Shown here piece by piece: positions 1 through 17,500 of a stretch of 64,000 bases of DNA (position 1 is the first letter of the stretch; each line of letters begins with the position of its first letter). The stretch spans positions 13,986 to 77,985 of the forward strand of contig JADBKU010000018.1 in assembly GCA_014896235.1 (NCBI GenBank), given 5' to 3'. Under the pieces are notes generated by a model that was not told where the DNA came from, did no database searches, and saw nothing but the letters and a program-made list of their open reading frames with translations. Origin of the DNA: a bacterium. Its GTDB lineage: Bacteria > Desulfobacterota > Binatia > Binatales > Binataceae. The position numbers and the translations under genes are program-made.

Positions 1-134
1 CATCGCGTGGCATGGAAACAGGGCGCGCTGCGGCTGGTGAAGGCTCTCATGTAGCCGGCGCGGCTGTGCATGCGGGCGGCGCGCCGCGCGATTGACGCGC
101 GCCGGTTCTGATTCAAGGCTGAGGAGGTTCGGCG

Positions 135-2084
135 ATGACGACCAAAGTGGCGCTGTTTTGCGGCGGACGAGGCAGCGCGACGATAATCCGTGAATTTCTG
201 CGGATGCCGGAAGTCGAACTGGCGCTGCTGGTCAACGCTTATGACGACGGACTGTCCACCGGAGCGCTGCGCGACTTCATTCCGGGGATGCTCGGTCCGT
301 CGGATTTTCGTAAAAATTTTTCGTATCTGCTCGACCCGCACTCGAAAAATCAGTACGCGCTCAAAACGCTGATCGAATACCGCCTGCCGATGACCTTCAG
401 CGCCGACGCCGCCGCGCGCATCCGCGACTTCGCTGAAACCGGCGCCCGCGACGGCATCGACCCGAAGATCGGCGAATTACTGGCGGCGCTCGATCCGCGC
501 ACGACCGTCGAAGTGCGCGGCCTGTTGAAGCAGTTTTTCGACTATGCCGCGGCGGGCGGACGTTCCTTCGATTTCCGCGATTGCGCGCTCGGCAACCTGC
601 TCTTCGCCGGCGCCTACCTGCGCCAGGGCCGCAACTTCAACGCCGCGGGCGAAGCGATGAGCCGGCTGGTAAGCTCGCGCGCCGTGCTGGTCAACGTCAG
701 CAACGGCGAAAACCGGATCTTGATGGCGCTCAAGGCCGACGGCGCGCTGCTCGCGCACGAGGCCGAAATCGTCGGCCCGCAGTCGCCGGCGCCGATTACC
801 GGCCTATATTTTCTGCCGCAGCAGATTCCTGCGGAAGAACTCATGGCGCTGGACGGCCTCAGCCTCGAGCGCAAGCGCGAATGGCTTGCCGAGCGCGATT
901 CGCCCCCGCAGCTTTCCGAGGAAGCGCGCCGCTTTCTGCGCGACGCCGACGCGATCGTTTACGGCCCCGGCACGCAGCATTCCTCGCTCCTGCCCAGTTA
1001 CCGAATCGCCGCGCCGGCGCTCAAATCCTCCCGCGCGCGCATCAAGGCGTTGATCGTCAATCTCGCGCCCGATCACGATATTCAGAATTTCACCGCGAGC
1101 GGCCTTGCCGACGTGATGCTCGAATACGCGGGCGATCCGGAAAACGAGGCGCGCATCGTCACCCACATCCTGATTCAGCATCCGCGCCGCCGCGGTTCCG
1201 GCCCCTCGCTCGATCCGGGGGCGCTCGAGGGACGCACGGCCTGGCGCGGCGCCATCGTCGTGCCCGGCTCGTTCCGCAACGAGATTCTTCCGCAAGTCCA
1301 CAACGGACGGGCGGTCGCGGGCGCGGTCGTCAACCTGCTCGAGCACGACGGCGCTCGCGAACAGCGTCCGTCGCTCGAAATTTTCTACGATCTCGCGCAG
1401 CGCCCGGCCGCCGGTCCGGCCCTCGTCGAAGAATTTCTCGAATTCGATTGGTGCGAACATTTTCGCCGCGTGGTGCTGCGCGTGCATGGCGCCGAACTGC
1501 CCGAGCTGCCGCCCCTGCCCGACCATCTTGCGATCGAGCGCTGGGGCGACGCCGGCGGCCGTTTCCCCGAAATCGGCATCGCCGCGGACTGGCTGCGCGC
1601 GGGCGGCGCCGACTATCTCGCGACCATCACCGGCGACGGCGAATACCGCTTGCGCGACATCGCCTTCGGCGTCAAAGTGCTCGAACAAAGCTCGTTCGGC
1701 GCCGTTTACGGCTCGCGCACGCAGAGCCGCCGGCAGTTCCGCCACTCCTTGCGTTCCGTTTACGGCGAAAAGGGCCTCGCCTACTTCGCCAGCTTCGCCG
1801 GCGCGTTTCTGCTGAGCGTCGCCTTCGCCGCCGGTTTCGGCGTGATCTTTTCCGATCCGCTGACCGGCTTCCGCATCTACCGCCGCCGCCGGATGGCCGG
1901 GATCGAGCAGGCGCTCGGCCGCGCGCGCCGCTCCGCCACGCCGACGACGATCACGCGGATGCTGGTGCGCAACCACGTCGAAATCGCCGAACTGCCGGTG
2001 CAATATCGGACCTTCGCCGGCTTTACCGATCCGCGCACGCGGCTCAAGCGCGGCATGAGCAACCTGCTCGGCCTGTTGCGATGA
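135..2084 (+). CDS. CofD/YvcK-family (2-phospho-L-lactate transferase-like, UPF0052) domain protein with a C-terminal GT2-like half-domain and one TM segment
   Basis: N-terminus VALFCGGRGSATI...VNAYDDGLSTGALRD matches the CofD/YvcK family signature (GG.G..K, VN.ADDG..SG.LR). The C-terminal roughly 250 aa carry GT2-like motifs (ATITGDGEY, FGAVYGSR, SDPLTGFRIYRRR resembling D.QSGFK.YRR) plus a hydrophobic segment. GAGGAGG sits 7 nt upstream of the ATG at 135. The stop overlaps the next start (ATGA). Confidence 0.6.
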   Translation: MTTKVALFCGGRGSATIIREFLRMPEVELALLVNAYDDGLSTGALRDFIPGMLGPSDFRKNFSYLLDPHSKNQYALKTLIEYRLPMTFSADAAARIRDFAETGARDGIDPKIGELLAALDPRTTVEVRGLLKQFFDYAAAGGRSFDFRDCALGNLLFAGAYLRQGRNFNAAGEAMSRLVSSRAVLVNVSNGENRILMALKADGALLAHEAEIVGPQSPAPITGLYFLPQQIPAEELMALDGLSLERKREWLAERDSPPQLSEEARRFLRDADAIVYGPGTQHSSLLPSYRIAAPALKSSRARIKALIVNLAPDHDIQNFTASGLADVMLEYAGDPENEARIVTHILIQHPRRRGSGPSLDPGALEGRTAWRGAIVVPGSFRNEILPQVHNGRAVAGAVVNLLEHDGAREQRPSLEIFYDLAQRPAAGPALVEEFLEFDWCEHFRRVVLRVHGAELPELPPLPDHLAIERWGDAGGRFPEIGIAADWLRAGGADYLATITGDGEYRLRDIAFGVKVLEQSSFGAVYGSRTQSRRQFRHSLRSVYGEKGLAYFASFAGAFLLSVAFAAGFGVIFSDPLTGFRIYRRRRMAGIEQALGRARRSATPTTITRMLVRNHVEIAELPVQYRTFAGFTDPRTRLKRGMSNLLGLLR

Positions 2085-2779
2085 CCGCCGCGCCCGCGTC
2101 GCCGCTCGCGGCGCGCAATTTTTTGTTCGATTTCGACGGCACCCTGGCCGATTCCGCCCCGCTCCACGCCGACGCTTTTCGCGCCGCGCTCGCGGTCGAG
2201 GCGCCCGCCGCGCTCGCCGGCTTCGATTACGAACCGCTCAAGGGATTGAACACGCGCGAGGCGTTCGAGCGGCTCGGCGTCGCCGGAGCGGAACGGCTGT
2301 CGCGATGCGTGGCGCGCAAGCGCGCCGCCTATCGCGACGCGGTGCGCGCCGGAGGTCTGCGCGCGTTCAGGGGCGCGCACGAATTGCTCGCCACGCTCCG
2401 CCGCGCCGGCGCGCGCAGCTACCTCGTCACCTCAGGCAGCTCCGCCTCGATCGCGCTCGCGCTTGAGCGGCTGGATCTCGCGTGCGCCTTCGCTGGAATT
2501 GTCGCCAGCGACGACGCCGCGCGCGGCAAGCCCGCTCCCGATCCTTATCTGGAATGCATGCGCCGCCATGCGCTCGACGCCGCCGGCTCCGTCGCGGTCG
2601 AAGACGCGCCGTCGGGCGTCGAATCGGCGCGCGCCGCCGGCCTCCGCGTGATCGGCGTGCACAATCCCATCGTCGCGCCGCTCGCCGATCGCTATTTTCC
2701 GACCCTGGACACGCTCGCCGCGGCGATCGCGGACGAACGCGCGCGACCGGCGCTGGCGCCCGGACCGCGCTATGCTTGA
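2081..2779 (+). CDS. HAD-IA family hydrolase (phosphatase, beta-phosphoglucomutase/phosphoglycolate phosphatase-like)
   Basis: FLFDFDGTLADS motif I, LVTSGS motif II, GKP, and EDAPSGVESARAAG motif III. Start overlaps the upstream stop by 4 nt. Confidence 0.7.
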   Translation: MTAAPASPLAARNFLFDFDGTLADSAPLHADAFRAALAVEAPAALAGFDYEPLKGLNTREAFERLGVAGAERLSRCVARKRAAYRDAVRAGGLRAFRGAHELLATLRRAGARSYLVTSGSSASIALALERLDLACAFAGIVASDDAARGKPAPDPYLECMRRHALDAAGSVAVEDAPSGVESARAAGLRVIGVHNPIVAPLADRYFPTLDTLAAAIADERARPALAPGPRYA

Positions 2780-3548
2780 CGCGATGAAGCTCTGCGCGCT
2801 CGTGCCCGCCGCCGGCCGCGGTTCGCGGCTCGGCCTGGATCGGCCGAAGATTCTCGCGGAAGTCGCGCCGGGCGTGACGATCCTGAGCGTCCTCAGCGGC
2901 AAGCTTCTGGCGATCGCCGACCATCTGAACATTATCGTCGCGCCCGACGCCGCCGATCTGATCGCCGCCGCGATCCGCTCCGGCCCCGGCGCGGATCGCG
3001 TCTCGACCGCGCTTCAGCCGGAGCCGCTCGGGATGGGCGACGCGATCTTTCGCGGCTACGACCGCTGGGCGTCAGCCGGCGCGATCATGGTCGTGTGGGG
3101 CGATCAGGTCTTCGTTTCCGCGGCGACCCTCGCCGCCGCCCGCGACGCCCATCGCGGCGCTCCGCGCACCGTCGTGATCCCCGTCGTGCCGCTCGCCGAA
3201 CCGTACGTCGAGTACGTCTTCGACGCGGGCCGCCTCGTCGCGGTCCGCCAGACCCGCGAGGGCGATCGCTGCGCGCCCGGCGGACTCGGCGACGTCGGCG
3301 CGTTCGTGCTCTCGGTCGCCGGATTGCGCGATGCGTGGCTGGAATACTCGGCTCTCGCGGCGCGCGGCGGCGCCACCGGCGAGATCAATTTCCTGCCGTT
3401 CCTGCCCTGGCTCGCCGCGCACGGATGGACCGTCACGCCGCTGCCGATCGGCGACCCGCGCGAGGCGCGCGGCGTCAACACGCCCGCCGACCTCGAATTT
3501 TTCCGCGCCGAATTTTCCCGCGCCCCGGTTGCGAAAACCGGACGCTGA
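2772..3548 (+). CDS. Nucleotidyltransferase (MobA/IspD/sugar-phosphate NTP-transferase fold)
   Basis: N-terminal LCALVPAAGRGSRLG matches the (L)xxAAGxGxR(L/M) NTP-binding loop of GT-A-fold nucleotidyltransferases. Overlaps the upstream gene by 8 nt. Confidence 0.55.
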   Translation: MLDAMKLCALVPAAGRGSRLGLDRPKILAEVAPGVTILSVLSGKLLAIADHLNIIVAPDAADLIAAAIRSGPGADRVSTALQPEPLGMGDAIFRGYDRWASAGAIMVVWGDQVFVSAATLAAARDAHRGAPRTVVIPVVPLAEPYVEYVFDAGRLVAVRQTREGDRCAPGGLGDVGAFVLSVAGLRDAWLEYSALAARGGATGEINFLPFLPWLAAHGWTVTPLPIGDPREARGVNTPADLEFFRAEFSRAPVAKTGR

Positions 3549-3573
3549 TCCCAAACGAGGACGAATCAATCCG

Positions 3574-4479
3574 ATGAGCGAAACCCTGTTGGTAACCGGC
3601 GGCGCCGGTTTTATCGGCAGCCATCTGTGCGAACTGCTGCTCGCCCGCGGCTATCGCGTGCGCGCCCTCGACAATCTGATTTACGGCCGCCGCGAATGGG
3701 TTCCGCGCGCCGCCGAATTCATCGAGGCCGACATCACCGACGTATCCGCCTGCCGCCGCGCGGCCAGCGGATGCGCGGGCGTGTTCCACATGGCCGCGAT
3801 GTCGCGCGCGGCGCCGTCGCTCGAAGCGATCGACGAATGCACGCGAAACAATATCGTCGGCACGCAGAACGTCCTGATCGCCGCGCGCGAGGCCGGCGTG
3901 CGCAAAGTCGTTTACAGCGGCTCTTCGACCTACTACGGCAACCAGCCAGGCCCGCATCGCGAATCGATGCGTCCCCAGTTCCTCAATTTCTACGCGCTGA
4001 GCAAGTACGCGGGCGAGGAGTACTGCCTGCTCTTCGATCGCGCGCTGGGCCTGCCCGCGATCGTCCTGCGCTACTTCAACGTTTACGGCCCGCGCCAGCC
4101 CGAACAGGGCGCCTACGCCCTTGTGCTGGGCGCGTTCCTGCGCCGATGGCGCGACGGAAAGACGCTTGAAATCCACGGCGACGGCTCGCAGCGCCGCGAT
4201 TTCATCCATGTTCGCGATATCGCCGAGGCGAACCTCGCCGCGTATCTGAGCCCCGCCCGCGGCTTCGCGCTCAACGTCGGCAGCGGCGAAAACATCTCGG
4301 TCAAAGAGCTTGCCGACATGATTTCGCCCGACCAGGTCCACGCGCCGCGCCGCGCCGGCGACGCCGAGGTCACCCTTGCGGATATTTCGCTGATCAAGGC
4401 GACGCTCGGATGGCGGCCGCGGGTGAGCTTCGCCGACGGCCTTGCCGAATTGAAACAGGCGATTCGCGCGGCCGGATGA
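3574..4479 (+). CDS. NAD-dependent epimerase/dehydratase (UDP-glucose 4-epimerase family SDR)
   Basis: LVTGGAGFIGSHL Rossmann motif, YALSKYAGE (YxxxK) catalytic motif, length 301 aa. Confidence 0.8.
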   Translation: MSETLLVTGGAGFIGSHLCELLLARGYRVRALDNLIYGRREWVPRAAEFIEADITDVSACRRAASGCAGVFHMAAMSRAAPSLEAIDECTRNNIVGTQNVLIAAREAGVRKVVYSGSSTYYGNQPGPHRESMRPQFLNFYALSKYAGEEYCLLFDRALGLPAIVLRYFNVYGPRQPEQGAYALVLGAFLRRWRDGKTLEIHGDGSQRRDFIHVRDIAEANLAAYLSPARGFALNVGSGENISVKELADMISPDQVHAPRRAGDAEVTLADISLIKATLGWRPRVSFADGLAELKQAIRAAG

Positions 4480-4504
4480 TCCGTTCGGCCTGGACGCTGC
4501 GGCG

Positions 4505-4789
4505 CTATTCGTCGTCCAGACCTTGCGCAGCCGGATCGGAGCTGAAATCGGAACCGCTGCTCGAGCGGAAAAAGCCGTCGTCAGGCGCATTGCGGGCGAT
4601 CCCAACGCAGAATGGATTATCGCTCCGTTCCGCGGCGCTCCAGCTCGGCGCCCGGTTCAGGAGCACGCCCGCGAGCGTCGCCGCCGCGATCGCGATCAGC
4701 ATCGCCGCGCCCACGCCGGGCGCTGACGCCGTGCGCCGCATTCGTTTCAGGCCACGCTTGCCGTGCGAACCGGAATTTGTGGACGCCAT
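4505..4789 (-). CDS. Hypothetical small membrane protein
   Basis: 94-aa ORF with one hydrophobic helix (AAMLIAIAAATLAGVLL). AAGGA-like RBS about 10 nt upstream. No recognisable family. Confidence 0.3.
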   Translation of the reverse strand: MASTNSGSHGKRGLKRMRRTASAPGVGAAMLIAIAAATLAGVLLNRAPSWSAAERSDNPFCVGIARNAPDDGFFRSSSGSDFSSDPAAQGLDDE

Positions 4790-4853
4790 CGCCTGATGTC
4801 CTTCGCAAGCCGAATTTTTTCAATCCCTCTTTGACGCCCCGGCTTCCGGCGCG

Positions 4854-5897
4854 TCATCGCCGCGGCTTGACTTCGAACGCCTCGGCCAGCAATTCGTACG
4901 ACCTCCGGCGCGCCTGATGGTCATGCACGATCGTCACCACCATCACCTCATCCACGCGCAGCTCCTCCGCCATCGCGAGGATTCCCGACCGCACCCGTTC
5001 GGGCGCGCCGGCGAAATATCTTGGCCATTCGCCGCTGTCGAAATCGCGCGGTTCCGGCGCCGGCCCAAGTTCGGCGATCGCTTCTTCGGGCGTCGGGATG
5101 GGCCGCACGTCGCCCTGCCGGATGCGGCGGCGGAACAGCCGCGCGCTCATCAGCAGCCGTTCGGCTTCCGCGTCGGTATCGGCGCAGACCGCGCCCAGCG
5201 CCAGAATCGTATAGGGATGCGCCAGGCGCGCCGACGGCGCGAAATGGCGCTGATAATGCTCGATCGCCGTGCGCGTCGAGCGCTGATCGATAAAATGGGC
5301 GAACGCATACGGCAATCCCAACTGCGCCGCCGCCGCTCCGCTCCACGGACTCGAACCCAGCAGCCAAAGCTCCGGACCGCCGGGAGTCGCCGGAGAAATC
5401 GCGATGCGGCTGAACGGATGCTCGGGCGGAAAACCGTCGCCGAGCCACGCCGCCAGCTCAACCAGTTGCTGGCCGAAATCGTCCGGCATCGGACCGCGCG
5501 TGCGCTCGCGCCGCAGCGCCAGCGTATCGAGCGGCGTGCCGCCGGGCGCGCGGCCCACGCCCAGATCGATCCGTCCGGGGTAGAGCGCGTGCAGCACGCG
5601 AAAGACCTCGGCCGTCTTGAATGGACTGTAATGCGGCAGCATCACGCCGCCCGAACCGACCCGGATGGTTTTCGTCTCGGCGGCGACGCGCGCGATCAGC
5701 ACTTCCGGCGCGGGACTGGCCAGCGCCGCGATCGCGTGATGCTCCGCGATCCAGTAGCGCTCGTAGCCGAGTTCGTCGGCCAGCCGCGCCAGATCGATCG
5801 TGTTGCGAAACGCGTCGGCCGGCGTGAGTCCCGCCGGCACCGGCGACTGATCGATGACCGATAGCTTCACGCCCCGCCCTGCCTCATACCATTTCAT
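4854..5897 (-). CDS. LLM-class (luciferase-like) flavin-dependent oxidoreductase
   Basis: YERYWIAEHH, GSGGVMLPHYSPFKTAE and GRIDLGVGRAPGG are typical of the bacterial luciferase-like monooxygenase family. 347 aa. Confidence 0.75.
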   Translation of the reverse strand: MKWYEAGRGVKLSVIDQSPVPAGLTPADAFRNTIDLARLADELGYERYWIAEHHAIAALASPAPEVLIARVAAETKTIRVGSGGVMLPHYSPFKTAEVFRVLHALYPGRIDLGVGRAPGGTPLDTLALRRERTRGPMPDDFGQQLVELAAWLGDGFPPEHPFSRIAISPATPGGPELWLLGSSPWSGAAAAQLGLPYAFAHFIDQRSTRTAIEHYQRHFAPSARLAHPYTILALGAVCADTDAEAERLLMSARLFRRRIRQGDVRPIPTPEEAIAELGPAPEPRDFDSGEWPRYFAGAPERVRSGILAMAEELRVDEVMVVTIVHDHQARRRSYELLAEAFEVKPRR

Positions 5898-5929
5898 CAG
5901 AATCGCCGCCGATCGAAAAGCGCCGCGCC

Positions 5930-8900
5930 TTATTCGGAGCGAAGCGCGCAGGCGCGGGTCGGCGGTTCGCTTCCGCCAGGCTGGCTCGCGGCGATCTTCG
6001 CGGGCGATACGATCAGCCGCTCCGGATCGATCCGCGTCTTCAAATAGGTGCGCACCGCTTCCGCCCGCGCCCGCCCCAGTCCGGGCAAATCGGCGGCGGA
6101 TACTTTCATGTTGGCGACCAGCAGCTTTTCCATCTCGGCCGGCGGCAGCGATTTCGCCATCCCGAGAAAATCGCGCGGCTTGTCGGGAATATCCGCCGCC
6201 TTGTACACCTGCTTGAGATACTTGTCGTATTCGCCGGTCGTAATCTGGAGATCGTCGAGGTTCACGTTCTCCTGTCCACTATCCTCGGCCTTGCGCTTGC
6301 GCACCAGGTAATCGACCTTGGCCTCGCACAGTCCCGGTTGGTCCAGCGACGGATCGACCACGCCGGTGATGTTGAGCTTCAAGGCGGAGCGCTGTTTGAG
6401 CGCCGCCGCTACCTCGTCGAGTTTCTTGCGATCGTCCGCGTTCAGCCGCGCGAAGCCCGGCTTGAACCCCACGTACGACAAGCCCTCGGCGCTGCCGCCG
6501 CCCGGCAGCGCCGAGGCCAGCAGTTTGAAGGGCGAGGTGATCGCCTTCATGATCAGGTTCTTGAAGGCGTACCAGATGACGCTGCCGAGGCTGAATTGCG
6601 GATTGTTGAGCGACCCCGAAACGGGAATGTTCAGATCGATCCGGCCCTGCGAATCCTTCAAGATCGCAACCGCCAGCCGCACCGGCAAATTGTAAACGCT
6701 CGGCTGCGGAACCTTGTCGCCAAAAGTGAGCTGATCGATCCGGATATGGTTCTGCGCGGTCAGATTGCGCTGGTCGAGCAGGTAATGCACATCGACGGTC
6801 AGCGTGCCCTGGGTAATTGGATAGCCCGTGTATTTGGCCGAATATGCGGAAAGGTCGGGCAGTTCGATGCCATTGGCCTTGGCGGTGATATCCAGATACG
6901 CCATCGGCGCCAGCGGGCTAACCGCGCCACTGATGCTGATCGGGGCGTTGCGGTTGACCATTCCGTTCAATGACACGTCCGCGGGCTTGGTCGAATCCGT
7001 GCCAAACTCGCCGATTTTGCCGGTCAAATCGGTCAAGTCCGCTGAATAGTTCGGCCGAATGAAGTTGTCGGTGTAGTTCGCTTCCCCGCCAGCCAGCACG
7101 ATCTCGCCAATCCTGATGTCGGCCGGCAGCGGCTTCGGCGGCGCGGCAGGCGCCTGCTGACCGGCGCCCGCCGCTTGCGGCGCCGGCGCGGGGGGCGGAC
7201 TCGGCGCGGGCGCAGCCACGGTTCCGTGCGCGCGCGTCAGCGAAGTCGGCGCCGCCTGCGGATTCGCCATGATATCGCTCAGGTTGAGCTTGCCGTCGCG
7301 ATTCAGAATGACGCGCGCGTAAAAGTCGTCGAAGGCGATCGCGCCCAGATGAATGCGCGGCTTTCCTTCGCCCATCGCAAAATCGATTCGCTCGAACCTG
7401 AGCGCGCGCCAGCGCGCGAACAGATCGCGCGTCAGCTTGTCGAGCATCCGCACGTCGCCGAGCGTCACGTCGCCGCGATAACTGATCCGCATCGCGCGCC
7501 GCTCCTGCGCGACGCGCACCGCGCCGCTGCTGCTGAGCATCGCGCGCGCGACAACCGCATTCATCCGCGCCGCCAGCACGGCGTTGGCCGGAGTCAGATC
7601 GAGGCGCCGCGTCACAACCCGCAAATTCGCCTTGAGCGGCTTGACCGCGGCGTCGCCCGTGATTTTGAGCGTGCCGCGCCGGTTGACGGTCGCGCCGATC
7701 GCAACGCCGAACGGTTTGGCGAAATTGCTGGTGACGTCTTTCAGATCGATATTGAGCGGCGCGATCGTCGCCCGCAATTCCGGCCGCTCGGTTTCGTCGC
7801 GCAGGGTGATCGCGGTTTTGTCGAACGCGACCGTCTTTATCTGGAATTGCCATTGCGGCGCTTTCGCCGTTGGCATGGCGGGCTTCCTTGCCGCGCGCCG
7901 CCGCTCCGGACGGCGCGGCGCGCGTGCGCGGCGCGGATGCGGACGGCCCCGGCGCGCTACGTGCGATTCGCTTTGCGTCGATTTGAGCAGCGACTCGAGG
8001 TTCAACCGGCCGCGCCGATCGCGAACGACCTCGACGCTGATTCCGTCCGTGCTCAGGCGATCGACGGTCGCCTGATGGGCCTGCAGGTCGGCCATCGCAA
8101 GTTGCGCGCCGATGCTCGTCCATCGGATCGGCTGCTGGCCGCGCTCTGGAAGCTGGATTTCAAAGCCGTCGAGCGACGCCTGCGCAGGCTCGACGTGAAG
8201 GTTGAACTTGCCCGGCGCATAGTCCGCTTTGACATTGGCGCTGGCGTTGACTTTGCCGGCCGCGATTTTGCCCGCAAGGATCGACTGCGCGAATCCCTGT
8301 AAGGCGGGAACGTCGATCTGCGACAGCGTTAGCTGGGTCGTCGCCGCGGAGCCTGCCAAATCCAGCGCGCCCTTTGCCGCGATCGCGCCGCCGCCGCTCA
8401 GCGTTGCGCCAAAGCTGTAGGGAATCGGCGCGCCAGCGCCGAGATGAAAATCGCTGACGTGCGCCGCGATCGATTGCATCGCGGTATTGACCGGCGCCGG
8501 CATCTGATTGTCCTGCAGGTTCACAGCGCCGTTGGTCACGTCGATCGAAACGACCTGCAAATCAAGCGCGGCTTTGCCTGGAGCGGCTGGCGCTCCGGCT
8601 TGAGCAGGCGGCGCGGGGGCGCCAGATGGCGCCGCGGGCGCGGCCTGGACCAGGGATGGATTTGACGTGACGGGACTGGCGCCGACCGCCACAGCCGGAG
8701 CACGCATGGCAGCTCCCGGGGGCGGCGCCGGACTCGAGGTGGCGCCAGATGGCGCCGCTGGCGCAGGCGTGAACCCGACGCCGGCCGCCGGCGGCGTCGA
8801 TTGCGGCGGCGCTTCGCTCGAAGACGCCAGTCGCGAAAAATTCGTCGTTCCATCGGCGTTGAGCGTCAAACTGGCCTTTAAGCCATCCAATTTAATCGCC

Positions 8901-9880
8901 GCCAGGTGCACATAATTGTGGAGCGGCTCGACGTTGTTAAGCACCACCAGCAGTCGATTGAATCCGACCAGCGGCTGGCCGGATTGATCGCGTACGTCGA
9001 GCTGATCGAGCCGCACCCTGCCCCCGATTCGAATTTGCGGGCCTTGGGTCGCTTGAACAAAATGAATCAGCAAATAGGTCGATAACGCGCCATGCGGCAT
9101 CGTGATCGGCAATTTGCGCGGAACATAGGCAAGATACTTCGAGATTTCGAGCGAACGCAGGTTTAGAACAAGTTCAGACTCCGGCTCGGCGCCGAACGGC
9201 CGCGCCGTGCCCGCCATCGCCAGCTTGCTTCCATCGACGACCATCGCCACATACGGCTTGACGTAAACCTTCACATACGCGGGAAGATTCGCGATAAACG
9301 GCACGTCGATCCGGAGATTCTGAACCGTATGGCGCTGGCCGAGCACCTGGTCGTCAAAATTGATAGCGCCGCCGCTGATTTGAATATTCGAAACCGAGAA
9401 ATGGAACGGCTTGCTCGGTGGCGAGGCCGCCGACGCGGGCTTGGGCGGCGGGATCAAATCCGAAAAATTGAAGGTGTTCGGCGCGGTTCGGACGATATTT
9501 ATCGTCGGATTCGTTATCGCGACCTCCTCAACGACCGGGGCGAGGCGCCACAGCGAATTCCAGGAGGCCTCGACGCCCAAGTGACCGATTTCAACGAAGG
9601 CGCCGCCGCCACTGCGCCTGGCGACCGCGAGCTTGTCGATTTCCAGGCGCAGACTGTACGGATTGAACGCGATTTCGCCCACGCCGACTTGCCGCTTGAG
9701 GCTTTTCGCGACCGATCCGGTCAGTACATGCCGCAGGATTGCGGGAACGCCGAAAAAGCCAAAGCCGGTATAAATCACCAGCGCGGCGACGATTCCGATC
9801 GTCCATCGGCGAACGCGCCGCGATTCAGGCAATCGTTTCGCTTTTTCGCTCGCGCGCCGGAAGATTTCTCGTAATGCCAC
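5930..9880 (-). CDS. AsmA-family/DUF748-type giant envelope protein (outer-membrane biogenesis, TamB/AsmA-like)
   Basis: 1316 aa. N-terminal TM anchor (WTIGIVAALVIYTGFGFFGVPAIL), long beta-rich body, several Pro/Ala-rich low-complexity linkers, C-terminal conserved block. The architecture is typical of the AsmA/DUF748 family. Confidence 0.55.
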   Translation of the reverse strand: MALREIFRRASEKAKRLPESRRVRRWTIGIVAALVIYTGFGFFGVPAILRHVLTGSVAKSLKRQVGVGEIAFNPYSLRLEIDKLAVARRSGGGAFVEIGHLGVEASWNSLWRLAPVVEEVAITNPTINIVRTAPNTFNFSDLIPPPKPASAASPPSKPFHFSVSNIQISGGAINFDDQVLGQRHTVQNLRIDVPFIANLPAYVKVYVKPYVAMVVDGSKLAMAGTARPFGAEPESELVLNLRSLEISKYLAYVPRKLPITMPHGALSTYLLIHFVQATQGPQIRIGGRVRLDQLDVRDQSGQPLVGFNRLLVVLNNVEPLHNYVHLAAIKLDGLKASLTLNADGTTNFSRLASSSEAPPQSTPPAAGVGFTPAPAAPSGATSSPAPPPGAAMRAPAVAVGASPVTSNPSLVQAAPAAPSGAPAPPAQAGAPAAPGKAALDLQVVSIDVTNGAVNLQDNQMPAPVNTAMQSIAAHVSDFHLGAGAPIPYSFGATLSGGGAIAAKGALDLAGSAATTQLTLSQIDVPALQGFAQSILAGKIAAGKVNASANVKADYAPGKFNLHVEPAQASLDGFEIQLPERGQQPIRWTSIGAQLAMADLQAHQATVDRLSTDGISVEVVRDRRGRLNLESLLKSTQSESHVARRGRPHPRRARAPRRPERRRAARKPAMPTAKAPQWQFQIKTVAFDKTAITLRDETERPELRATIAPLNIDLKDVTSNFAKPFGVAIGATVNRRGTLKITGDAAVKPLKANLRVVTRRLDLTPANAVLAARMNAVVARAMLSSSGAVRVAQERRAMRISYRGDVTLGDVRMLDKLTRDLFARWRALRFERIDFAMGEGKPRIHLGAIAFDDFYARVILNRDGKLNLSDIMANPQAAPTSLTRAHGTVAAPAPSPPPAPAPQAAGAGQQAPAAPPKPLPADIRIGEIVLAGGEANYTDNFIRPNYSADLTDLTGKIGEFGTDSTKPADVSLNGMVNRNAPISISGAVSPLAPMAYLDITAKANGIELPDLSAYSAKYTGYPITQGTLTVDVHYLLDQRNLTAQNHIRIDQLTFGDKVPQPSVYNLPVRLAVAILKDSQGRIDLNIPVSGSLNNPQFSLGSVIWYAFKNLIMKAITSPFKLLASALPGGGSAEGLSYVGFKPGFARLNADDRKKLDEVAAALKQRSALKLNITGVVDPSLDQPGLCEAKVDYLVRKRKAEDSGQENVNLDDLQITTGEYDKYLKQVYKAADIPDKPRDFLGMAKSLPPAEMEKLLVANMKVSAADLPGLGRARAEAVRTYLKTRIDPERLIVSPAKIAASQPGGSEPPTRACALRSE

Positions 9881-12058: not shown

Positions 12059-12883
12059 ATGTCAGTTCTAAAAGGCGACAGCCGAACGCATGGCCGGCGG
12101 CGCGCCGCCGCGACCGCCAACGGCAAAACGCATCCGCGCCGCGCGCTCGCGTTCTACGACGTTGACGGCACCTTAATCGATTTGAATCTGCTCCACTCGG
12201 CGCTTTTCGTTTTCGGCAATATCGGCGAATGGAGCGGCCGAATCGGCTATCTCGCCAGCTTCGCCGCGAGACTGCCGTCGCTTTATCTCGCTGAACGCCG
12301 CGATCGCTATCTGCTCAATATCGCGCTTTTCGAGGCCTTCAAGGGCGTCTCCCGCGATCGCCTGTTTTCGCTGGGCGAGGAATATTGCGATCGCGTGATG
12401 ATCGGCCATCTCTATCCGCGCGCCGCCGAACTTATTGAAGCGAACCGCGCGGCGGGGCTCGAACCGGTACTGGTGACAGGCTCGCCGGATTTTATCGTCG
12501 CGCCGTTCGCCGAGCGGCTGGGCATCAAGTCGTGGGCCGCGAACCGGCTGGTCTTCAGCCGCGGGCGAGCCACCGGACGCCTGCACGCGCCGGTGATGGC
12601 TGGCGACGCCAAAGCGGAATGGTGCGCGGAATATTGCGCGCGCCACGGAGTCGGACTTGCCGATTGCTGGGGCTACGCGGATTCCCATTACGACCTGCCG
12701 TTTCTGGCCGTGATGGGGCATCCGGTTGCGGTCAATCCCGACCGGCGCCTGGCGGCGATCGCGGCCGCGCGCCAATGGCCGTTGCTTCGTTTCGATAAGG
12801 GGGAACCGCGGCGCACGCTGGGCGGAATCGACCGCGCCGCGGTCGGCGAATGGCTTGAGAGGAAACTTAATGGCGCGGCCTGA
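12059..12883 (+). CDS. HAD-IB family hydrolase (phosphoserine phosphatase-like)
   Basis: FYDVDGTL motif I, VLVTGSPD motif II, GDAKAEW Lys region, YADSHYDLPFL and AVNPD C-terminal motifs typical of HAD-IB. 2 nt after the tetR stop. Confidence 0.7.
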   Translation: MSVLKGDSRTHGRRRAAATANGKTHPRRALAFYDVDGTLIDLNLLHSALFVFGNIGEWSGRIGYLASFAARLPSLYLAERRDRYLLNIALFEAFKGVSRDRLFSLGEEYCDRVMIGHLYPRAAELIEANRAAGLEPVLVTGSPDFIVAPFAERLGIKSWAANRLVFSRGRATGRLHAPVMAGDAKAEWCAEYCARHGVGLADCWGYADSHYDLPFLAVMGHPVAVNPDRRLAAIAAARQWPLLRFDKGEPRRTLGGIDRAAVGEWLERKLNGAA

Positions 12884-14510
12884 AGCGAAACTCAAGGAAC
12901 TTAAGCCGGCGGACCTGAAGCGCGAGGTGGGATCGCGGCGCGATCTAGTGGTGACGCTCAGCCGCCGTTCCGAGCCGCGGCTGATCGCCTACGGCGACGA
13001 GTTTCTGTACGAAAAGCTGCCGGCGGGAACGCGCGTCGTCTATCCCCCGCCGCCGCTCGACGCGCTGCCCGATCCGGACACCGCGATCCGCTACGCCCTG
13101 CTCCATCCGCTCAACGCCGATCCGCTGTTCGCGCAGCTCAATCCTAACATGCGCGTCACCATCGCGATCGACGACATCAGCCTGCCGCTGCCGCCGATGC
13201 GCCGTCCCGATATCCGCGAACGGCTGCTCAACCAGGTGCTGCAAACGCTGGCGGATTACGGCGTCGATGACGTTCATCTGATCGTCGCCACCGCGCTCCA
13301 TCGCCGGATGACCGAAGCGGAAATCCGCCGGATGGTGGGCGAGCGCGCTTTCAAGCAGTTCTGGCCGGAACGGCTCTACAACTTCGACGGCGAGGATCGG
13401 GCGAACCTCACGATGCTCGGCAAGACCGATCATGGCGAGGAGGTGTGGCTGTCGCGACGCGCGGCGGAATCGGATTTGCTGATTTATCTGAATATCAACC
13501 TGGTGCCGATGGACGGCGGGCATAAATCGGTCGCCGTCGGACTCGCGCCCTATCAAAGCCTGCGCCACCATCATAATCCCGCCACGCTTCGCGACAGCCA
13601 CTCATATATGGACCCGACGCGCTCGGCGCTGCATAGTTCGGCGAACCGGATGGGCCGGATAGTCAATCGCGAAGTGAATGTATTTTCGATCGAGACCGCC
13701 GTGAATACCCAGATGTACGGCGGGATGCTCGACTTCCTGCAAAAGAATGAAGATCGCTTCAGCGACTGGGATCGGATGCGGCTCAAGGGCTTCCGCTGGA
13801 CGCTCGGCGGAATGTCGAACGAATTGCGCCGCCAGGTGATGCATCAGTACGCGGCGCCATACGGGATGACGGGGGTGTGGGCGGGCGAGACCGAAACCGT
13901 CCATCGGCAGGCGCTGGCGCGGGTGTTCCAGCAGTACGCGGTTCCGGTAAAGGGACAATCCGACGTGCTGATCGTCGGCGTGCCCTATATCTGTCCCTAC
14001 AACGTCAATTCGATCATGAATCCCGTCCTCGTGCAGTGCACCGGGATGGGCTACCTGTTCAACATGTACCGCAACAAGCCGCTGGTGAAACCCGGCGGCA
14101 CGATGATTATCTGCCATCCGCTGCGCGACGAATTTCATCCTGAGCATCATCCGAGCTACATCGAATTTTTCCATCGATGCCTGGCCGAGACGACCGACTC
14201 GATCGAACTGGAAAAGCGGTTCGAAGCCGAGTTCGCGCGCAACCCGACCTATATCCACATGTACCGTTACGGACACGCCTATCACGGCGTGCATCCGTTC
14301 TACATGTGGTACTGGGGCGAGCCGGCGCGCCAGCACGTGGGGCGGGTGATCGCGGCCGGATGCCAGGAGCCGGAGGTCGCCGCCCGGCTGGGATGGGAGT
14401 CCGCGGACACGCTCGACGAGGCGATTGCGATGGCCACGTCCGAGCATGGACGGTCGGCGACAATTACCTATCTGCACTTGCCGCCGCTGGTGATCGCCGA
14501 TGTCGAATAG
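12870..14510 (+). CDS. LarA-family (lactate racemase-like, DUF2088 N-domain) protein
   Basis: 546 aa. Conserved blocks (VTIAIDDISLPLPP, LIVATALHRRMTEAE, MDGGHKSVAVGL, HHHNPATL) resemble nickel-pincer-dependent LarA-family racemase/epimerases. Overlaps neighbours by 14 and 11 nt. Confidence 0.55.
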   Translation: MARPEAKLKELKPADLKREVGSRRDLVVTLSRRSEPRLIAYGDEFLYEKLPAGTRVVYPPPPLDALPDPDTAIRYALLHPLNADPLFAQLNPNMRVTIAIDDISLPLPPMRRPDIRERLLNQVLQTLADYGVDDVHLIVATALHRRMTEAEIRRMVGERAFKQFWPERLYNFDGEDRANLTMLGKTDHGEEVWLSRRAAESDLLIYLNINLVPMDGGHKSVAVGLAPYQSLRHHHNPATLRDSHSYMDPTRSALHSSANRMGRIVNREVNVFSIETAVNTQMYGGMLDFLQKNEDRFSDWDRMRLKGFRWTLGGMSNELRRQVMHQYAAPYGMTGVWAGETETVHRQALARVFQQYAVPVKGQSDVLIVGVPYICPYNVNSIMNPVLVQCTGMGYLFNMYRNKPLVKPGGTMIICHPLRDEFHPEHHPSYIEFFHRCLAETTDSIELEKRFEAEFARNPTYIHMYRYGHAYHGVHPFYMWYWGEPARQHVGRVIAAGCQEPEVAARLGWESADTLDEAIAMATSEHGRSATITYLHLPPLVIADVE

Positions 14511-17500
14511 GAACGGAGCTTCGTCCGGCGCGGGTCCGCGCCGCAACGGCGCATCCGCGCGCGCGGCGAGCGGCGCGATGCCGCCGCTCGCGGAAATTTT
14601 CGCCGGGCGGGAATTGCTGATTACGGGCGCGACCGGTTTTCTCGGCAAAGTGCTGATCGCGATTCTCCTGCGGCATCATCCCGAGCTCGCCCGGCTGCAT
14701 CTGCTGATTCGCGGCGATCGCAAATCGAGCCATAACCGCTTCCGGCGCGAAATTCTCGAATCGCCCGCGCTCGGCCCCCTGCGCGAACATCTGGGCGCCA
14801 GCTTCGACCGCTATATCGAGGAGCGGGTCGCGATCGTGCCGGGCGACATCGCTGAACCGGGCCTGCTCAGCGACGAAGCGCCGGCGTTCGAGCGCGCGCA
14901 TATCGACGCGGTCATCCATTGCGCCGGCCTGGTGAATTTCGACGCGTCGCTGGCCAAGGCGCTCGAAGTCAACGCCATCGGCGTCGAAAACGTGGTCGCC
15001 TTCTGCTGCGCGCGCGGCGCCGCCCTGCTCCACGTTTCGACCTGTTACGCGGCGGGCGCCGCCGACGGCCATCGCTACGAGGACGACATCCCGATCGACT
15101 GGCGGCCGAACGGCCGCAAGGGCTTCGAGCTCGCGCGCGAAATGCGCGACGCGCGCGCGGAAATCGCGCGCGTCGAGGCGGAAGCTTCCGATCAAGCGCG
15201 AATGGCGCAGTTCCGGATGGCGGTCGAGGCGGAATCCGCCGACGCGGACGACGAGCGCGGCCACGGCGAAAGCGGCGAGCGCGCGATCGACGCGCGGCGC
15301 AAACAATGGATCGAAGAACGCTTGAAGGAAGTGGGCAAGCGGCGCGCGCGGATGTGGGGCTGGCCGAACACCTACAGCTACACCAAGAGCCTCGGCGAAC
15401 AGATTGCGCTCGCGGCGCGCGACCGCATCGCGGTGACGGTGGCGCGGCCGTCGGTGATCGAAAGCGCGCTCGCCGATCCGATTCCCGGATGGAACCAGGG
15501 CGTCAACACCAGCGCGCCCCTGACCTATCTGTCGGGACGCGGCTATCGCTTCTATCCAGCGCGGGGCGACCTGGTGCTCGACGTGATTCCGGTCGATCTC
15601 GCCGCGCACGCGATGGTTCCGATTCTCGGCGCGCTGTTGAGCGGCCGGCACAAGCCGATTTACCAGCTCTGCACGTCGGACGTGAATCCGCTGCCGATGC
15701 GCCGCCTGGTGGAATTGACCGCCCTCGGCAATCGGCGGGAGCATCGCCGGCAGGGCGGGCCGATGGGCAAGCTCGCGCGCCATCTGGAAGCCGTCATCGT
15801 TTCGCATCAGACCTACGAACTGGTCAGCCAGCGGCTGCCGGCGTTGCTGAAGAGCGCGGCGGCGGCGGCGGAATCGGTGATGGGCGATCGTCCGGCGGCG
15901 CGCAAAATCGCCGAGCGGGTCGAACGGCTGGTCGCGGACACGGAACTGGCGCGCTCGCTGGTCGAAGTCTATCTGCCGTATATCCAGGACCTGGTTTATA
16001 CCTTCCACGGGCGCAATATCCGCGAGCTGTACCGGGAACTTAAGCCGGCCGACGCGCGCGCCCATCCGTTCCATCCCGAGCGCATCGATTGGGCCGACTA
16101 CTGGATCAACGTCCATCTGCCGGGATTGCGCCGGCATATTTTCCCGCAGCTCGAATTGCATACGCGGGCGCGGCCGCGCGGCGGTTTCCGCTTCCGCACG
16201 CTGGTCGAGATGCTCGACCGGGCGGCCGAACGCTACGGCGCGCGGCCCGCGCTCGAGGCGCGCCTGCCGTCGGGCCAGCGCGCGGGCATGACCTATCGCG
16301 AACTCCGCGATCGCGCGTATCGGGCGGGCCTGATGCTGGCGTCGCGCGGGGTCGAACCGGGCGATCGCGTTCTGCTGATTGCGGAGAATTCGCCCGAGTG
16401 GGTGATCGCATACTTCGCGATAATTTACGCCGGCGCGATCGCCGTACCGCTGGACCATCTAATTGCGCCGGAAGAACTGGGGCCGATCGCGCGCATCGCC
16501 GAACCGGGCGCCGCGCTGGTTTCCGCCGGATGCGCGAAGCGGCTGGGCGCGGCGATCAGCGCGGCGGCGCCGGGAATCGCCGAGCTAGGACTGGACGAGC
16601 TGAATCGGCCGTTCATTCTCAGCGCGAAAGCGAAGACTCCGCCCGCGCTCGAGCGCAAATCGATCGCGTCGATCGTTTTCACCTCCGGCACCACCGGCGC
16701 GCCCAAGGGCGTGACGCTGACCCACGGCAACTTCACCGCCGAAATTGCGATGCTGGCGCGGGTGTTCACGCTCGGCGCCGACGACGTCGTGCTCTCGCTG
16801 CTGCCGCTGCACCATACCTTCGAGTTCACCTGCGGGATGCTGTTGCCGCTGGCGAGCGGCGCGCGGATCGTTTACCCGCAGGGCGTGGACGCCGCGAGCC
16901 TGTCTCGCACGCTGGCCGACGTGCGGCCGACCGCGCTGGTGGGAGTGCCGGCGCTGTGGGAGGCCGTGCACCGCCGCATCATGGACGAAGTCGAAGCGCG
17001 CGGGCCTTTCGCGCACGCCGCGTTCGAGCGGATGCGCGATCTGAATCGCCGGCTCGACGAAGATTACAACTTCAATCTCGGCACGCTGCTGTTCCGCCCG
17101 GCGCATGCCGCATTAGGCGGACGGCTCAAGCTCGCGGTGAGCGGCGGCGCGGCGCTGCCGCAACGGGTCGCGCGCTTTTTCAACGAAATCGGCATCCGGC
17201 TGCTTGAAGGCTACGGCCTGACCGAATCGGCGCCGGTGCTGAGCGTCGCGCGGCCCGACGAACCGCTGGTTCCAGGGTCGGTCGGCAAGCCGCTGCATAA
17301 CGTCGAGGTCAAATTGGCCATGGCCGAGGGCGGCGTCGGCGAGATTATCGCGCGTGGGCCGAACGTGATGGCGGGCTATTACCGCAATCCCGCGGCGACC
17401 GCCGAAGTGCTGCGCGACGGCTGGCTGCATACGGGCGATCTCGGCCGTTTCGACGAAGACGGACGGCTCTATATCGTCGGCCGGGCGAAGGACGTAATCG

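Follow-up and report, generated by a model that had tools for sequence, protein, structure and literature searches.

A probable sugar-donor operon of the Binataceae with a fusion of a YvcK-like domain and a lipid-carrier-type glycosyltransferase fold

The window analysed here is a stretch of 64,000 nucleotides from a bacterium of the Binataceae (contig JADBKU010000018.1), and it opens with an operon whose central gene, g1, encodes a YvcK/GlmR-like domain fused to a glycosyltransferase (GT) domain of the GT-A fold. The operon is a variant, without the usual partner gene, of a widespread cassette organised around this fusion of a YvcK-like domain with a lipid-carrier-type glycosyltransferase, and its likely product is a sugar donor destined for the cell envelope. 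Four co-directional open reading frames (ORFs) on the plus strand were confirmed at positions 135–4479: g1, the HAD hydrolase gene g2, the nucleotidyltransferase gene g3 and the epimerase gene g4 (epiB). The initial annotation of this DNA had proposed a four-gene operon with the activation and transfer logic of coenzyme F420 biosynthesis. Its four genes are real and tightly packed, but a fifth, epiA, ends at window base 54 and keeps its position in the related loci L011, L012, L013 and L020. The unit is a five-gene operon in the order epiA, fusion, HAD, nucleotidyltransferase, epiB.

A conserved cassette around the fusion gene

A profile search of 1.84 billion representative proteins places g1 in a family of at least 513 clusters at 50% identity (E ≤ 1e-30), and a search of the accessible literature for CofD-like or YvcK fusions with a glycosyltransferase found no paper on it. 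The same parts occur in several architectures, which were verified with Pfam: nucleotidyltransferase (NT)-CofD-GT2 (P0291, P0300), HAD-NT-CofD-GT2 in a single chain of 1148 residues with a canonical GT2 (P0310, L052:5698-9144), NT-CofD (P0348), CofD-HAD (P0366) and a free-standing domain of about 420 residues (P0278, P0292). Because these parts recur as Rosetta-stone fusions, g1, g2 and g3 are tied to one process. We rejected the notion that domain order in the fusions follows reaction order, since the HAD part is N-terminal in P0310 and C-terminal in P0366. The surroundings of the P0310 gene contain radical SAM genes, methyltransferases, an epimerase and a gene for a protein of 670 residues that is predicted to cross the membrane ten times.

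Nine independent loci of the window's subfamily were compared, from Binataceae, Bradyrhizobium, Legionellales, Rhizomicrobium and five metagenomic lineages; a related-locus search with the single fusion protein had returned only four close relatives. At all nine, a canonical GT2 of 222–266 residues without transmembrane helices lies directly upstream of the fusion, a nucleotidyltransferase lies downstream and at least one epimerase is present. A HAD gene is found at six, and seven have, within 9 kb, a PMT_2, TMEM260_N or unnamed protein with 9–11 predicted membrane segments. Recurrence of this order in nine independent lineages puts the gene set well outside what chance would give. Even at E = 1, Pfam gives no match to the unnamed large membrane proteins, most of which are dissimilar to one another by BLAST, and the label “GT-C-like”, apart from the PMT_2 and TMEM260_N matches, refers to their topology. 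With GT2, PMT_2/TMEM260-type and other polytopic membrane genes at the related loci, the glycan or lipid-linked sugar context suggested by the initial annotation is borne out.

In some fusions the GT2 part is a canonical PF00535 domain (P0303, P0339). At the P0303 locus (L050), a stand-alone GT2, a HAD, a nucleotidyltransferase and a PMT_2 gene lie alongside the fusion, and because both GT2s are canonical here, two GT2-type modules per cassette are a family trait. The idea that the stand-alone GT2 compensates for a degenerate fused GT-A domain was rejected, as this locus keeps a stand-alone GT2 beside a canonical fused one.

The N-terminal domain is closer to YvcK than to CofD

The N-terminal domain of g1 matches PF01933 CofD in Pfam (residues 6–349, 69 bits). 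Among NCBIfam models, TIGR04357 (GAK CofD-like) scored 59 bits, far under its cut-off, and TIGR01826 (YvcK) 53.9 bits against a cut-off of 196, while TIGR01819 (F420_cofD, cut-off 257 bits) gave no match at E ≤ 0.1. The AlphaFold model of g1 consists of two domains (mean predicted local distance difference test score 83.9). A Foldseek search with the first of these found YvcK (2hzb) at E 5e-15 and a target-normalised template modelling (TM) score of 0.83, compared with E of about 1e-6 to 1e-7 and TM of about 0.6 for FbiA/CofD. A profile search of PDB sequences returned five UPF0052 entries and no CofD or FbiA; the aligned entries include 2q7x, 2hzb and 2ppv.

Conservation extends from end to end in an alignment of 37 members of the window's fusion subfamily (A1). 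For a three-clade comparison, the fusion domain was aligned with eight YvcK and seven CofD sequences from genomes of the same phylum and with E. coli YbhK. These outgroups came from genome searches and E. coli ybhK; a shorter-protein search gave mostly fragments and no named YvcK or CofD. All three groups have GGxG, one Asp, one Gly and P..S..P in common. Fourteen further fusion-invariant positions match YvcK and not CofD: S41, T42, R46, P55, D57, R59, E81, R83, G153, N154, G277, G279, N309 and H389. The CofD motifs NTGDD, D..LATH and PSNP..SI.PIL are absent from the fusion in this alignment, their places being taken by NAYDDGLSTG, C.GNL and GPGTQHSS. In a quick IQ-TREE maximum-likelihood tree the three groups separate with Shimodaira–Hasegawa approximate likelihood-ratio support of 95 (fusion), 93 (YvcK) and 100 (CofD), and along the branches the fusion group lies about half as far from YvcK as from CofD; the tree is unrooted, with three groups on long branches, and nesting cannot be shown from it. 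The safe statement from these sequence comparisons is that the domain is a separate clade, closer to YvcK than to CofD. The initial annotation had named a grouping with YvcK as grounds against its own reading, and this holds by half: the domain does lie nearer to that group, but as a clade of its own. Its description as a CofD-like domain with CofC/CofD logic is unsupported in view of the YvcK motifs, the UPF0052-only PDB matches, the difference in fold similarity and the lack of a TIGR01819 match.

D37-D38, the DD motif, is invariant across the 37-member alignment and corresponds to D40/D41 of GlmR; the motif is among the predicted catalytic residues of Listeria GlmR (PMC10128056). YvcK/GlmR binds UDP-GlcNAc and has been reported to be an accessory uridyltransferase (PMC10128056).

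A separate F420 pathway in the same genome

A full F420 pathway is encoded elsewhere in the genome, with every gene above its curated cut-off. cofE (267 bits), cofD (314 bits, cut-off 257), cofH (455 bits) and cofG (438 bits) are adjacent on contig C11 (G000:C11:21522-25430), and cofC (140 bits) is on contig C26 (G000:C26:70874-71470); no cofC, cofE, cofG or cofH was found near the window on its own contig, C10. Because this complete pathway is separate, the operon is not F420 biosynthesis, which agrees with the initial annotation in so far as it looked beyond F420, and the genome's genuine cofD is the gene on C11, not g1. The distributions also differ: the four other families of the class in which cofD was scored all have it, and among 301 sampled genomes of the phylum only two carry the fusion, that of the window and one more from its genus. 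On this ground, cofD and the fusion differ in history and job.

That g1 might itself be the functional cofD of a variant F420 or F420-like tail pathway is already effectively refuted. All that favours the idea is the PF01933 match together with the F420 genes and F420-type luciferase-like monooxygenase (LLM) oxidoreductases of the genome, to which are opposed the bona fide cofC, cofD, cofE, cofG and cofH, the absent TIGR01819 match and the occurrence of the fusion in only two of the 301 genomes.

The C-terminal GT-A domain

The GT2-like module noticed by the initial annotation corresponds to the C-terminal 245 residues of g1, which have no Pfam match and an ArnC-like fold. The best Foldseek matches are ArnC (9asc, 9bhc), GtrB and DPMS, with GpgS among the weaker ones; the language-model neighbours, taken as a lead only, are short GT2 proteins. 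In an hhalign comparison with ArnC and the partner GT2s, TGDGE aligns with DxDxQ and D574 with D158 of ArnC. An alignment with canonical fused relatives (A4) indicates that the second, metal-binding Asp of the DXD motif (D501), the Arg of the G.R motif (R528), the Asp at the catalytic position (D574) and E619 of the E.P motif are kept; D501 and D574 are invariant across the 37 members. A hydrophobic helix at residues 548–572 (548–568 in the model) occupies the position of the interface helices of ArnC, GtrB and DPMS, with a mean hydropathy of 2.2 over 19 residues and a peak at residue 554. The segment is conserved in the family, and no transmembrane helices were found in the C-terminal domain.

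Accessory enzymes

The product of g2 matches HAD_2 in Pfam (110 bits) and TIGR02009 in NCBIfam (87 bits, under the cut-off), and its nearest structures are BT2127 pyrophosphatase and beta-phosphoglucomutase (beta-PGM). It is a HAD-IA enzyme of the beta-phosphoglucomutase/sugar-phosphatase group, within which its sequence fits a mutase, a bisphosphatase or a product phosphatase equally.

The initial annotation likened g3 to the CofC step of F420 biosynthesis, but the protein is of GlmU type and no CofC match was registered. It matches NTP_transf_3 (42 bits), and its residues 9–254 align with residues 9–257 of the uridylyltransferase domain of M. tuberculosis GlmU. The motifs PAAGRGSRLG(x4)PK and WGDQ are invariant, as is PAAGRGSRLGLDRPK, and the G.G(T/S)R(M/L)....PK signature of the GlmU N-domain type is present. 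At one related locus (L022:11687-12508), the C-terminal 60 residues of the nucleotidyltransferase do not align with the family, which looks like a frameshift or assembly error. Complex prediction for the fusion with the nucleotidyltransferase scored 0.00, which is evidence neither for nor against an interaction.

Both epimerases belong to the short-chain dehydrogenase/reductase (SDR) superfamily. That encoded by g4 matches Epimerase in Pfam (202 bits) and galE in NCBIfam (150 bits, under the cut-off); its nearest structures, 6wjb/6wj9, 4zrm (T. maritima GalE), WbpP and WbgU, are enzymes which we take to be UDP-hexose or UDP-N-acetylhexosamine (UDP-HexNAc) 4-epimerases. EpiA is a 3beta-HSD/HpnA-like extended SDR (Pfam Epimerase 155 bits; best NCBIfam model HpnA-like, 125 bits, under the cut-off). 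The same-position genes of the Binataceae locus L007 are 74% identical to g4 and 76% to epiA.

A lineage without the partner GT2

The window's lineage (L011, L012, L013, L020) has 83–97% identity and the gene order epiA, fusion, HAD, nucleotidyltransferase, epiB, with no GT2 between epiA and the fusion. The best match to the partner GT2 anywhere in the window's genome is only about 30% identical, and no homologues of the large membrane proteins of other lineages were found in it; nine PMT_2 genes are present on its other contigs. Within the lineage, the ratio of nonsynonymous to synonymous substitution rates (dN/dS) is 0.10–0.21 for the N-terminal domain and 0.04–0.10 for the C-terminal domain. 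Both domains are under purifying selection, and since they are constrained in a lineage with no GT2 neighbour, the fusion protein is in use without one.

RNA-library contigs from three hot-spring metatranscriptomes map to all four genes with 97–100% identity and bridge the g1/g2 (1773–2205) and g3/g4 (3423–3627) junctions; some stretches, such as 3001–3400, have no such cover. As these data are contigs that carry no strand information and may include DNA carry-over, they lend weak support to expression and co-transcription of the operon. DNA nearly identical to window positions 100–4500 is indexed in metagenome runs from coal (0.96 of sampled words), soil, hot springs and the rhizosphere; the coal run may be the source sample. 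The contigs compared came from one hot-spring DNA run and three hot-spring RNA runs, and small word shares were not used to assign habitats.

Proposed function and alternatives

We favour, with middling confidence, a pathway in which the operon makes a sugar of the UDP-hexose or UDP-HexNAc type, the YvcK-like domain binds this sugar and the ArnC-like domain acts at the membrane on a polyprenyl-phosphate-linked acceptor. The HAD enzyme would supply or proof-read the sugar phosphate, the GlmU-like enzyme would make the UDP-hexose or UDP-N-acetylhexosamine type donor, and the two SDR enzymes would epimerise or modify it. By analogy with UDP-GlcNAc binding by YvcK, the N-terminal domain would hold the UDP-sugar, and the GT-A domain, seated on the membrane by its hydrophobic interface helix, would act on the lipid-linked acceptor. 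GT-C enzymes would then take the resulting lipid-linked sugar and attach it to a glycan, lipid or protein of the envelope. The scheme builds on observed family memberships, fusions, cassette surroundings and selective constraint in both domains; sugar, acceptor and the domains' shares in the work are inferred.

Several observations weigh against this proposal. None of the 37 family members matches a GT2 Pfam model, PF00535 included. The first Asp of the DXD motif is Thr in this subfamily (T-G-D), and alignment A4 shows the nucleotide-binding motifs P.YNE, DDGS.D and N.G all replaced; the replacing residues R423, E433, E436, W439 and W486 are invariant within the subfamily and D419 is nearly so. 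Because the donor-site motifs are lost and no GT2 model matches, ordinary catalysis of the GT2 kind, dependent on a nucleoside diphosphate (NDP) sugar, is doubtful for this domain to judge from its residues. The window's locus holds no GT2, flippase or GT-C gene, and with neither a GT2 nor a GT-C at hand the fusion must act alone or with unlinked partners. All accessory enzymes score under equivalog cut-offs; no sugar is assigned to the pathway. Finally, the proposal does not explain the second canonical GT2 next door, even at L050.

With its donor-site motifs gone, the GT-A domain is a weaker candidate for a plain GT2 mechanism, and CofD-style phosphotransfer, which we regard as unlikely, stays in play. 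The YvcK-like domain would then move a sugar-1-phosphate or other phospho-group from the NDP-donor made by g3 to a hydroxyl by attack at the beta-phosphate, releasing a nucleoside monophosphate; the remodelled GT-A domain would only hold the lipid-linked or polyprenol acceptor, and the HAD enzyme would trim phosphate. The phosphotransfer of CofD/FbiA is the only well-defined chemistry of the superfamily, the core GGxG...D...G...P..S..P residues are common to all three clades, and a GT-A domain that is strongly constrained yet devoid of nucleotide-binding motifs fits an acceptor-binding role. The recurrent fusions of nucleotidyltransferase, YvcK-like domain and HAD agree with such a scheme as well, and the separate canonical GT2 could make the acceptor lipid-sugar. 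However, the motifs present are YvcK-specific and the CofD-specific ones (NTGDD, PSNP..S) are missing, TIGR01819 gives no match and the structure is much closer to YvcK. The nucleotidyltransferase is GlmU-like rather than CofC-like, and this chemistry is not known from any YvcK-type protein.

Slightly more doubtful still is the variant in which the YvcK-like domain of this subfamily is the catalyst and the GT-A domain no longer binds nucleotide sugar, the fusion being a soluble or peripheral phosphoglycosyl (sugar-1-phosphate) transferase. A UDP-sugar made by the neighbouring enzymes would be loaded onto polyprenol, polyprenyl-phosphate or a glycan held by the GT-A domain, with release of uridine monophosphate (UMP). 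If true, this would offer a third way of making lipid-linked sugars, next to the polytopic WecA/WbaP-type and the GT2 enzymes, and the YvcK branch of the CofD superfamily would gain its first defined transferase chemistry.

The partner GT2 raises a further alternative, which we consider distinctly improbable: the YvcK-like domain may be a UDP-sugar sensor, as proposed for the action of GlmR on GlmS, and a non-catalytic GT-A domain may tether or activate a separate membrane GT2. B. subtilis GlmR is described as a UDP-GlcNAc-binding regulator in two papers (PMC7525490, PMC6171935), and a GT-A domain without donor-binding motifs next to a canonical GT2 in 9/9 other lineages would suit such a role. 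The window's lineage, however, has lost the GT2 neighbour and yet keeps both domains at dN/dS 0.04–0.21; D501, D574 and D37-D38 are invariant across the 37 members; and distant relatives have a canonical fused GT2 in addition to a stand-alone one.

The absence of membrane genes from the locus can also be read as soluble glycoside synthesis, in which the GT-A domain would glycosylate a small phosphorylated acceptor and the HAD enzyme would dephosphorylate the product to give a compatible solute or cofactor precursor. This logic, very improbable here in our judgement, resembles that of the glucosyl-/mannosyl-glycerate and trehalose-6-phosphate pathways. No GT2, flippase or GT-C is encoded in the window's operon, whose products are all soluble or peripheral, GpgS is among the weaker fold matches of the GT-A domain, and synthases are commonly paired with a HAD phosphatase. 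Opposed to it are the best fold matches, which are the polyprenyl-phosphate GT2s ArnC, GtrB and DPMS, and the conserved hydrophobic interface helix, which has no counterpart in soluble GT-A synthases. In most other lineages GT-C-like membrane genes lie beside the cassette, and the HAD gene is missing from three of the nine cassettes.

Gene boundaries and neighbouring genes

Positions of the operon genes and of selected neighbours are given in Table 1. The initial annotation reported overlaps of 4 and 8 nucleotides between the genes. The first, a 4-nucleotide ATGA overlap at the g1/g2 junction, is real, but the second depends on an ATG at 2772 that is not conserved, being ATT in the sister genome L011 and absent from L013. 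The conserved ATG at 2784 matches the point where all homologues begin, and for this reason g2 and g3 are more likely separated by a 4-nucleotide gap; the operon is still tight. The ATG of g4 at 3574 has a GAGGA ribosome-binding site, and a 382-residue ORF from 3331 is an upstream extension of it. A promoter and terminator scan of window positions 1–6000 gave nothing above shuffled expectation.

Table 1. Location and assignment of the operon genes and of neighbouring genes; positions refer to the window unless a contig is named
Feature	Position	Strand	Length	Assignment
epiA (3′ end)	1..54 (whole gene G000:C10:12996-14039)	+	~347 residues	Upstream SDR epimerase/dehydratase
g1 (fusion gene)	135..2084	+	649 residues	
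g1 N-terminal domain	135..1346	+	residues 1–404	YvcK/GlmR-like (UPF0052/CofD superfamily), two family-specific insertions
g1 C-terminal domain	1347..2084	+	residues 405–649	Remodelled ArnC/GtrB/DPMS-like GT-A domain
g2	2081..2779	+	232 residues	HAD-IA hydrolase, beta-phosphoglucomutase/sugar-phosphatase type, DxDGT motif
g3	2784..3548 (first ATG 2772; ORF 2772-3548)	+	258 residues (ORF from 2772)	GlmU-N-domain-like sugar-1-phosphate nucleotidyltransferase
g4 (epiB)	3574..4479	+	301 residues	GalE/PelX/WbpP-like NAD-dependent nucleotide-sugar 4-epimerase family
Downstream oxidoreductase	4854-5897	-		MsnO8-family LLM oxidoreductase, 394 bits, above cut-off
DUF748 protein	5930-9880	-	1316 residues	DUF748/AsmA/YhdP-like protein (DUF748 1024 bits)
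Upstream oxidoreductase	G000:C10:11685-12740	-		Luciferase-like oxidoreductase, closest to F420-dependent TIGR03619 (144 bits, just below cut-off)

The LarA-like racemase that the initial annotation tentatively linked to the operon is a real gene (12726-14510), encoding a hydroxyacid isomerase dependent on the nickel-pincer nucleotide (NPN) and belonging to the LarAH14/15/16 family (847 bits, cut-off 740). It lies 8.2 kb beyond the operon with two opposite-strand genes in between, and the gene lists of the nine related loci contain no Lar_N, so the functional link finds no support. A HAD (PF12710) gene, the LarAH14/15/16 isomerase and the gene for a 1469-residue protein are adjacent at 12059–18909; this protein combines a fatty-acyl-reductase-like NAD_binding_4/Sterile part with AMP-binding, PP-binding and acyltransferase domains, and the region may serve to tailor hydroxy-acid lipids.

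The minus-strand gene at 5930–9880, downstream of the operon, encodes a protein that resembles outer-envelope bridge-like lipid transporters. Two luciferase-like oxidoreductases flank the operon, and both positions are conserved in the sister genomes L011 and L013. Upstream of the window (L001, G000:C10:7440-10867), a 335-residue fusion of a 2-oxoglutarate-Fe(II) (2OG-Fe(II)) oxygenase with a PqqD-like peptide-recognition domain stands beside an MsbA-type ABC exporter, and the two may be a peptide-modification pair similar to those of ribosomally synthesised and post-translationally modified peptides (RiPP-like).

Significance

In Gram-positive bacteria, YvcK/GlmR proteins are important for virulence and cell-wall homeostasis, but there is continuing debate over what they do biochemically. 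Here, in many phyla, gene fusion and operon organisation firmly couple a sister clade of YvcK to an enzyme that activates sugars and to a glycosyltransferase fold of the lipid-carrier kind. This context predicts the ligand of the domain, a UDP-sugar at the membrane, and release of UDP or of UMP would separate the models. The genome itself provides a natural control, holding a true cofD and a YvcK-like paralogue. New in this analysis are the donor-site loss of the subfamily's GT-A domain, a lineage with no partner GT2 at the locus and with purifying selection acting on the fusion, a chain that unites four domains, the presence of both a true cofD and its paralogue in one genome, and the RNA-library contigs.

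Comparison with known systems

YvcK/GlmR of B. subtilis and L. monocytogenes (structures 2hzb, 2o2z, 2ppv and 2q7x) is the nearest clade to the N-terminal domain of g1 (fold match TM 0.83), and the two have the motifs GGxG, DDG.S.G..R, P(G/S)D.R, GN and GPG...(S/T)S..P in common. Unlike YvcK, the g1 domain contains two insertions (about residues 86–146 and 225–258) and its own family-specific invariants (R12, N34-A35-Y36, K60-N61, Q281 and D313/D315), is fused to a GT-A domain, and forms a separate clade on a long branch. Its context is a sugar-activation operon, whereas that of YvcK is yvcJ-glmR-whiA. CofD/FbiA, the 2-phospho-L-lactate transferase, belongs to the same superfamily (PF01933), and the pairing of g1 with a nucleotidyltransferase is superficially like that of CofC and CofD; g1 differs in lacking the CofD motifs, in its weaker fold match and in a tree distance about twice that to YvcK.

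Among the other enzymes, g3 resembles GlmU but has no acetyltransferase domain and scores far under the GlmU cut-offs. The C-terminal domain of g1 is like ArnC, GtrB and DPMS in its GT-A fold, in D501, R528, D574 and the E.P motif, and in the hydrophobic interface helix; unlike them, it has a 17-residue family-specific insert and no C-terminal transmembrane helices.

The closest parallel for the whole cassette is found in the three-component systems for lipid-linked glycosylation (GtrA/GtrB/Gtr-type, ArnC/ArnEF/ArnT, CsbB/GtcA/YfhO and PpgS/Rv3779), with which the cassettes of other lineages share a GT2, nucleotide-sugar supply and a GT-C-like polytopic protein. The Bradyrhizobium cassette also encodes an EamA protein of 123 residues, a further point of likeness. 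What the cassette adds, unlike these systems, is the fusion of the YvcK-like and GT-A domains, a dedicated nucleotidyltransferase and a HAD enzyme, with two GT2-type modules in all. It can be described as a probable cassette for lipid-linked sugar donors to which a YvcK-like module has been added.

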